Below, one piece after another: positions 56,092-56,300 of a stretch of DNA of 64,000 bases. Where the stretch lies: NCBI GenBank assembly GCA_046317875.1, contig JBKCVN010000013.1, forward strand, positions 3,627 to 67,626, in the 5' to 3' direction. The translations under genes were made by a program, and so were the position numbers. How positions within the stretch are numbered: position 1 is the stretch's first letter; each line of letters begins with the position of its first letter. Under the pieces are notes generated by a model. It searched no databases and was not told the DNA's origin. It was given only the letters and a program-made list of their open reading frames with translations. This DNA is from Alphaproteobacteria bacterium (GTDB lineage: Bacteria; Pseudomonadota; Alphaproteobacteria; UBA7879; UBA5542).

Positions 56092-56244
56092 CGATCTTGA
56101 AACAGCAGATAGAAAAAGCGGACTCTTTTCTAGCCTCTTCTAAATCAAACTCTCAGGTTATTTTTACGCCAGCAGGATGTGGATTCGAAGATGCCTGGCG
56201 CAGGGCACGCAAAATCTCAATATATTGATTTGAGAGTGATTCCG

Positions 56245-56300
56245 CACCCGCACCCGCACCCGCACCCGCACCCGCACCCGCACCCGCACCCGCACCCGCA
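56245..56300. repeat. Perfect hexanucleotide microsatellite (CACCCG)9 plus a partial unit
   Basis: Read directly from the sequence: nine consecutive CACCCG units at 56245-56298, with partial units on both sides. Non-coding. About 150-210 nt upstream of the start of the 55711-56091 gene on the minus strand. Confidence 0.95.

Follow-up and report, generated by a model that had tools for sequence, protein, structure and literature searches.

A perfect hexanucleotide microsatellite of nearly ten CACCCG units lies upstream of a 126-aa orphan open reading frame (ORF), inside a ~0.9-kb lineage-specific islet between tRNA-Met and rpmA. The reading we tentatively prefer, with a probability of roughly 0.4, is that the tract is a copy-number 'rheostat' of this ORF, acting through its leader or upstream region. 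The whole stretch of DNA analysed, 64 000 nt in length, is called the window, and the features on which the argument turns are the following.

55496–55572, plus strand: tRNA-Met (CAT), the conserved left border (ARAGORN and Rfam; identical in relatives)
55573–56480, no strand: the lineage-specific variable islet of ~0.9 kb, holding the ORF, the spacer, the tract and an AT-rich block
55711–56091, minus strand: the 126-aa orphan ORF, 'hypothetical protein' under NCBI MAG locus tag ACK5PQ_01890
56092–56241, minus strand: the 150-nt spacer from tract to ATG, putatively the 3' part of a leader
56242–56300, no strand: the perfect hexanucleotide microsatellite (Tandem Repeats Finder and regular-expression search)
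56312–56470, minus strand: a block of 17–22% GC, the putative promoter region (from composition and a relaxed promoter scan)
56485–56516, no strand: a bidirectional intrinsic terminator 3' of rplU-rpmA, with 15-nt arms that are 93% complementary and flanking A and T runs
56539–56787, minus strand: rpmA (L27), the conserved right border (Pfam PF01016, E = 3e-37)

An earlier note on this DNA had described a perfect nine-unit CACCCG tract at 56242–56300, and both repeat searches bear this out. Tandem Repeats Finder reports 9.8 copies of period 6, with 100% matches and 0 indels. Nine full CACCCG units follow one another, starting at 56245, 56251 and so on to 56293, with partial units at both ends. 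The tract is 59 nt long and its flanks hold no degenerate units; the sequence anchors that bound it are ...CAATTTGCAGTTATC and GAATCACTCTCAAATC.... The plus strand reads (CCGCAC)9.8, or (CACCCG)9 in full units, and the minus strand reads (GGGTGC)~10, which is the sense strand of the downstream 126-aa ORF. A perfect period-6 tract of 59 nt would be expected by chance, on our calculation, ∼0.257^53 × 64 000 = ∼1e-26 times, and no other perfect repeat in the 64-kb window reaches both 14 nt and 4 copies. The placement given in the note, 150–210 nt upstream of 55711–56091 in the minus sense and below the rpmA terminator, also holds: the gap between the ATG (56091) and the tract is 150 nt (56092–56241), the far end of the tract is 209 nt away, and the terminator is the hairpin at 56485–56516. 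The premise that the tract is prone to slippage is sound, as it is perfect and long enough (9.8 units, 59 nt). The 'AT-rich genome' of the note was right in part. At 41.6% GC the window is only moderately AT-rich; the 160 nt directly above the tract, at 17–22% GC, fit the description.

Exact-protein look-ups recovered the locus in two independent Logan short-read assemblies. The contig from SRR31514666 is 100% identical to the window, and that from SRR10823795 is 94.5% identical to it across 5.5 kb. The two carry an identical junction (…CAGTTATC/TGCGGGTGCGGG…) in the same phase, and both contigs end within the tract after reaching ∼30 nt of pure repeat, which we put down to assembly with k=31 of a periodic sequence longer than this. 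The tract is genuine and longer than ∼31 nt in three data sets, the MAG and the two Logan assemblies. Since the junction and its phase are common to two independent assemblies, one of them only 94.5% identical to the window, the tract persists and is no artefact of assembly. The join across it is also backed by synteny, as relatives share the order tRNA-Met, cargo, rpmA. A metagenome scan with the gene-proximal junction of the tract gave 0 matches. One apparently divergent junction, at the start of the sequence labelled L003, was rejected: positions 1–19 are the Nextera mosaic-end adapter AGATGTGTATAAGAGACAG on Logan contig SRR31514666_566972, so this contig end is technical, not genomic.

The loci of relatives were retrieved via the neighbouring GT4 glycosyltransferase and AlaRS. 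They share the gene order GT9-GT4 / rplU-rpmA / [cargo] / tRNA-Met / ∼450-aa orphan / ∼1100-aa orphan, and the slot between rpmA and tRNA-Met is filled differently in each of the five lineages.

L139 (83% AlaRS identity), 9234–10620: a 181-aa ORF, which looks like a secreted coiled-coil protein, and a 79-aa ORF
L124, 2007–3337: a DUF4410 protein and a 163-aa ORF
L128, 3749–4984: a eukaryote-like tyrosine phosphatase
GCA_041443025: an alpha/beta hydrolase
L140, 18535–19178: the slot is almost empty

In alignments, homology between the window and these relatives breaks directly past the CCA end of tRNA-Met. The repeat is absent from the slot loci of all five lineages (L124, L128, L139, L140 and GCA_041443025), and in the four long relative loci a three-unit TATT, in L124, is the only perfect simple sequence repeat (SSR) to reach 12 nt. 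Remnants of the relatives' cargo were sought in the islet by blastn and tblastx, and none were found. Given the break in homology and the lack of the repeat or of any similarity in relatives, the tract and the 126-aa ORF belong to a lineage-specific islet of ∼0.9 kb. Judged by sequence comparison, the rpmA/tRNA-Met slot is a hypervariable accessory site.

Beyond tRNA-Met lie two large orphans on the minus strand. The larger (1046 aa, 50790–53930) has a signal peptide, a K/E/A-rich coiled coil and a low-complexity C-terminal part; the other (448 aa, 53887–55233) overlaps it by 44 nt, and neither has a Pfam match. Positional counterparts of both (385–521 aa and 1143–1230 aa) stand beside tRNA-Met in all of the relatives. 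The window otherwise carries chromosomal housekeeping genes (YidC, LpxC, RadA, Alr, BamA and H+-PPase), together with genes for a GyrB/ParE-type subunit and a subunit of the NADH:quinone oxidoreductase/Mrp-antiporter type. An Rfam match to RF01815 (rpsB sRNA/leader; 42.7 bits against a gathering score of 40) falls at 34416–34507 on the minus strand, upstream of an rpsB-like ORF. The nearest named relatives (Reyranella, Paracaedibacteraceae and Odyssella) are at ∼59% AlaRS identity.

Conservation was compared between the window and the 94.5%-identical strain only. The 238 nt between rpmA and the tract are 97.1% identical in this pair. This is more than in the GT4-rplU intergenic region (90.3%; Fisher p = 0.007 against the rpmA-tract block) or at GT4 third codon positions (80.6%; p = 2e-10 against the same block), and is similar to the 95–96% found at rplU/rpmA third codon positions (p = 0.46). 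Because the rplU/rpmA third positions are equally conserved, we do not count the identity of the block upstream of the tract as a sign of constraint. Against the contig labelled L001, the block 56271–57222, which takes in rplU, rpmA and the sequence down to the repeat, is 97–99% identical, and the third positions of the adjacent GT4 and GT9 genes are at 81–87%. The low divergence of the segment that runs from rplU to the tract may stem from a recent recombination import, or from strong codon or regulatory constraint.

The 126-aa ORF is the candidate target of the tract, and the only one. Its locus tag follows directly on that of the 448-aa orphan (01880, then 01890), and the next tag after 01890 appears to be that of rpmA, so that the deposited annotation would leave the tract region intergenic. 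Besides the ORF product itself, 0 homologues were found among 5.8e9 clustered proteins and 0 among 1.84e9 representatives searched with HMMER, and there was no Pfam, PHROG or PADLOC match, permissive thresholds included. The product is acidic and helical and has no signal peptide, and its AlphaFold (AF2) model, with a pLDDT of 41, is unreliable. To score coding potential, 24 long genes of the window served as the training set for a codon log-odds model. The ORF scores +0.114 bits per codon, the top of the six frames and higher than every off-frame control chunk; rpmA (0.159) and the 448-aa neighbour (0.158) score close to it. It nonetheless ranks in the bottom 1.3% of true in-frame chunks. Like many genes of the window, it lacks a Shine-Dalgarno sequence. 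On codon usage, the ORF is probably coding, though atypical. Being an orphan that lacks a signal peptide, it is atypical for a contingency gene.

The hexamer itself is usually found in quite different surroundings. A scan for (GCGGGT) arrays of at least 5 units, with one genome per species, matched at least 120 genomes, and 125 arrays were analysed among the matches listed. Among these matches, the median GC content was 71%, and for 121 of the 125 arrays, in high-GC genomes, the surrounding frame ran for at least 150 codons without a stop and translated to (AP)n, (AG)n, (HP)n or (TR)n. Such coding (GCGGGT)n or (ACCCGC)n linkers share with our tract the identical hexamer and a similar copy number (5–13), but they sit in long ORFs of genomes with a median of 71% GC, whereas the tract here is in no credible ORF and in a genome of 41.6% GC. 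Only 2 of the 125 arrays, among the matches listed, were in loci below 50% GC. One is a non-coding (CACCCG)12–13 of Paenibacillus polysaccharolyticus BL9 (L043, 575–646; NZ_FMVM01000021.1). Its locus is 46% GC, and the array is flanked by an intrinsic terminator on one side and a TATAAT-like hexamer on the other. A non-coding CACCCG array in a 41.6% GC genome is thus unusual, not unique. A literature search for the exact repeat returned only unrelated primer or aptamer sequences.

A standard promoter scan of the ORF's strand from the terminator to the ATG found nothing. A relaxed scan of the same strand gave weak sigma-70-like matches of 8/12 at best, all of them upstream of the tract (56329–56472), and between the tract and the ATG no site scored 8/12 or better. 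That the weak promoter-like hexamers are all upstream favours a position of the tract within a transcribed leader. The earlier note had proposed that repeat number alters promoter spacing. In the strict sense this is excluded by geometry, since a tract of 59 bp cannot be the spacer between −35 and −10 elements, which is 16–19 bp. With placement in the core spacer excluded, the phasing of an upstream element or an effect through the leader are the sole remaining routes; a frameshift effect is excluded by the period of 6.

The sense strand of the tract carries ten G3 runs with 3-nt TGC loops, so that the canonical G-quadruplex (G4) motif (G3 N3 ×4) occurs six times in overlapping register; elsewhere in the 64 kb it is found at two other loci only. 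For the isolated repeat RNA, the fold predicted by ViennaRNA with the G4 option is a pair of quadruplexes (−38.3 kcal/mol), whereas a hairpin reaches −23.5 kcal/mol. The spacer at 56092–56241 includes a C-rich stretch (GCGTGCCCTGCGCC) able to pair with the G-rich repeat RNA, and when the longer leader is folded, the predicted minimum-energy structure is a duplex with this downstream C-rich segment instead of the G4. A leader hairpin formed by the repeat and the C-rich segment was rejected as not significant (z = −1.78; 12 of 200 shuffles fold as well), and shuffled sequences gave DNA hairpins as good as that of the isolated tract. An Rfam search gave no family at gathering score, and its weak matches all fell on the generic terminator hairpin.

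Two further observations concern the DNA on either side of the tract. On the plus strand, a promoter-like site TTGAAA-18-AATATT (9/12; 56313–56342) abuts the tract and is directed at the rpmA terminator; the would-be transcript of ∼170 nt would end at 56492–56518, and its fold (z = −3.1) is dominated by the terminator hairpin and matches no Rfam family. In the spacer, a 14-nt stretch (GCATCTTCGAATCC, minus strand, 56181–56194) resembles the inverted T-arm of tRNA-Met (55545–55558; 86% complementary), which may be chance or the trace of a former att/tRNA fragment.

SSRs that lie outside both the coding sequence and the promoter spacer set, through their unit number, the transcription or mRNA level of nadA in Neisseria meningitidis (TAAA), vlhA in Mycoplasma gallisepticum (GAA) and uspA2 in Moraxella catarrhalis (AGAT, in the 5'-UTR). 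As an intergenic SSR upstream of a gene, our tract is of a kind already known. Those systems have units of 3–4 nt, known surface-protein targets and shown variation, whereas here the unit is 6 nt and the target an orphan. The nearest working analogue, by analogy of architecture, is the heptanucleotide tract of Haemophilus influenzae hmw1A/hmw2A: PMC2651432, citing Dawid et al. 1999, describes 7-bp repeats ∼100 bp upstream (∼70–106 bp) that modulate expression, with copy number setting the expression level and not the reading frame. The hmw repeats and our tract are alike in being long perfect SSRs (13–38 units in hmw), in having a unit of more than 4 nt and in lying outside the core-promoter spacer; they differ in that hmw has an AT-rich 7-nt unit and a surface adhesin as target, and the tract here a GC-rich 6-nt unit and a cytoplasmic-looking orphan ORF.

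In sequence terms, the nearest class is the G4-forming GGGNATC / GGGGAYT repeats of Xanthomonas and Nostoc, which are mostly intergenic, often transcribed and variable in unit number (PMC4692102). Like these, our tract is an intergenic G3-run SSR with a unit of more than 5 nt and at least four G-tracts (PMC4692102). The Xanthomonas and Nostoc repeats, however, are heptamers at ∼90–190 loci per genome, in which four units and sites no more than 50 bp from an ORF are preferred (PMC4692102); ours is a hexamer of ten units, found once in 64 kb of 41.6% GC DNA and separated from its ORF by 150 nt. Thus the tract has the four G3 runs with short loops that mark this class, and lacks the dispersed heptameric unit. 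It compares in a similar way with phase-variation loci, sharing the slippage-prone perfect SSR and lacking two traits that are typical of such loci, though they do not strictly define them: a surface, secreted or restriction-modification target, and several loci per genome (the 64 kb here hold one SSR). Coding dipeptide repeats lie in a credible ORF, and MITEs or inverted-repeat cassettes have significant terminal repeats and multiple copies; the tract shows neither.

In the reading we prefer, replication slippage would have made the tract and kept it perfect, within an accessory islet adjacent to tRNA-Met. The promoter of the orphan ORF would be in the 17–22% GC block upstream of the tract, which would then be transcribed within a leader of ∼240 nt; alternatively, the tract would lie 60–120 bp upstream of a weak core promoter. 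Each 6-bp unit gained or lost (0.57 helical turn) would grade expression of the ORF, with no on/off switching. It might do so by changing the length of the leader with unit number, or by altering how many G3 runs the sense strand carries; there, (GGGTGC)10 would suffice for two tandem G-quadruplexes in non-template DNA or in RNA. G-quadruplex structure favours R-loops. We infer the length variability of the tract and any effect that it has on expression, as well as the position of the promoter and the transcription of the repeat. Several observations are consistent with this reading: the ORF has a coding signal in the right frame and is co-oriented with the tract, non-coding arrays of the hexamer are rare, the islet adjoins large orphans with signal-peptide and coiled-coil features, and the slot carries secreted-type cargo in relatives (the tyrosine phosphatase, the hydrolase and the DUF4410 protein). 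Against it, the best promoter candidates match at 8/12 only, the ORF may not be a functional gene, given that it has no homologue, Shine-Dalgarno sequence or signal peptide and a low-confidence fold, and there is one tract in 64 kb. Organisms that rely on SSR contingency loci usually carry many. A more specific form, in which the G4-capable hexamer is a heritable and reversible copy-number dial of an accessory gene, working via the leader through a G4 in RNA or non-template DNA or through an R-loop, we consider improbable.

We rank an effect through the leader or upstream region slightly above the explanation that the tract is a functionless by-product of slippage in dispensable, fast-turnover islet DNA, where a proto-repeat would have grown by slippage and been kept by a balance of slippage and point mutation, with a copy number that may drift. 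This latter explanation is a serious contender. The islet is the least constrained DNA of the neighbourhood, with other cargo in every related lineage, the adjacent ORF is an orphan of doubtful function, and the window carries a single tract. The Paenibacillus array (L043) indicates that the unit also expands in non-coding DNA elsewhere. As summed up in the introduction of PMC4692102, long SSRs with units of 5–11 nt are generally ascribed to a tendency to expand and not to function, those with units of at least 5 nt mostly reflect that tendency, and they are generally linked to large, GC-rich genomes of non-pathogens; in H. influenzae, the survey of PMC2651432 found no hexanucleotide SSR consistent with phase variation. 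Even the sharing of the tract by two strains is explicable by the locally low-divergence block from rplU to the repeat. On the other hand, bacteria very rarely have long perfect SSRs in non-coding DNA, E. coli K-12 having only three hexanucleotide repeats (PMC7015867), and the tract lacks degenerate flanking units, has an AT-rich promoter-like block on one side and, on the other, a co-oriented ORF with a coding signal, and has been kept in a strain at ∼94.5% identity. An ON/OFF phase-variation switch, with unit changes altering core-promoter spacing or the phasing of an upstream activator or UP element, seems unlikely. The length and perfection of the tract make it slippage-prone, the 17–22% GC block on its distal side could serve as a UP-like or bent element, and by arithmetic each unit would turn the helical phase by 0.57 turn; a weak TTCGAA-17/18-TAAAAAT, read by eye at 56189–56160, would put the tract at about −60 to −120. 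The promoter scans of the ORF's strand, with nothing in the standard search and no site of at least 8/12 between tract and ATG, argue against a switch of this kind, as does a tract too long for a −35/−10 spacer.

That the tract is coding or once was, either in a 52-aa (Ala-Gly)10 micro-protein (56153–56311, with a TTG start) or in a decayed acquired gene with a dipeptide-repeat linker, is a very unlikely account, though it has the hexamer's habits elsewhere in its favour, since CACCCG is overwhelmingly found within long ORFs, where it encodes (AP)n, (AG)n, (HP)n or (TR)n. The 52-aa frame has the top codon score of the six frames (+0.168), but this score is driven mainly by the repeated GCG-GGT pair, and the ORF has no Shine-Dalgarno sequence and no family match even at E = 10. 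GC content declines steadily from the tract into the 126-aa ORF, as foreign DNA might, yet joining the two frames would require reversal of a stop codon and a frameshift, and by tblastx the islet has no similarity to the cargo of relatives. The earlier statement that the tract is 'not in any ORF' needs rewording: three mechanical ORFs of 45–54 aa cross it as (AG)n, (RV)n and (HP)n, without a Shine-Dalgarno sequence or family match among them, the longest stop-free stretch through it is ∼66 codons, and none is credible. On these frames the tract is to be taken as non-coding for practical purposes, with no credible ORF containing it. The least probable account makes the tract the inner end of a small mobile cassette with inverted-repeat ends (55624–55649 and 56308–56330) or an assembly artefact. 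The imperfect inverted pair matches at 23 of 26 nt, its arms lie 50 nt from the end of the tRNA and 7 nt from the tract, and a tRNA-adjacent site is typical of integrated elements. The pair is however no better than chance (3 of 40 composition-preserving shuffles equal its score), the arms are single-copy in the window, and the eight metagenome sequences that match the arm pattern have no further resemblance to the locus and are chance matches; an artefact is excluded by the two independent assemblies with the same junction and by the conserved synteny over the join.

From its sequence context, the tract could tune expression of the orphan ORF. If copy number does tune expression, the contingency behaviour of SSRs would take in hexanucleotide units, so far discounted by surveys, and would extend to a G4-forming sequence and to an uncultured environmental lineage of the Alphaproteobacteria. 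The locus would then be a natural system for parting the effects of length from those of quadruplexes in bacterial leaders. Should the G4 dial prove real, the locus would become the first contingency locus with a hexanucleotide unit and a G4 basis, as well as the first of the SSR type to be described in this part of the Alphaproteobacteria. If copy number is without effect, the tract would be a clean case of microsatellite birth in a tRNA-adjacent hypervariable slot. The tract would also be usable as a strain-typing marker for the lineage. Either way, the surrounding slot is the more robust finding, with varied cargo in every relative and conserved giant orphan proteins flanking it.
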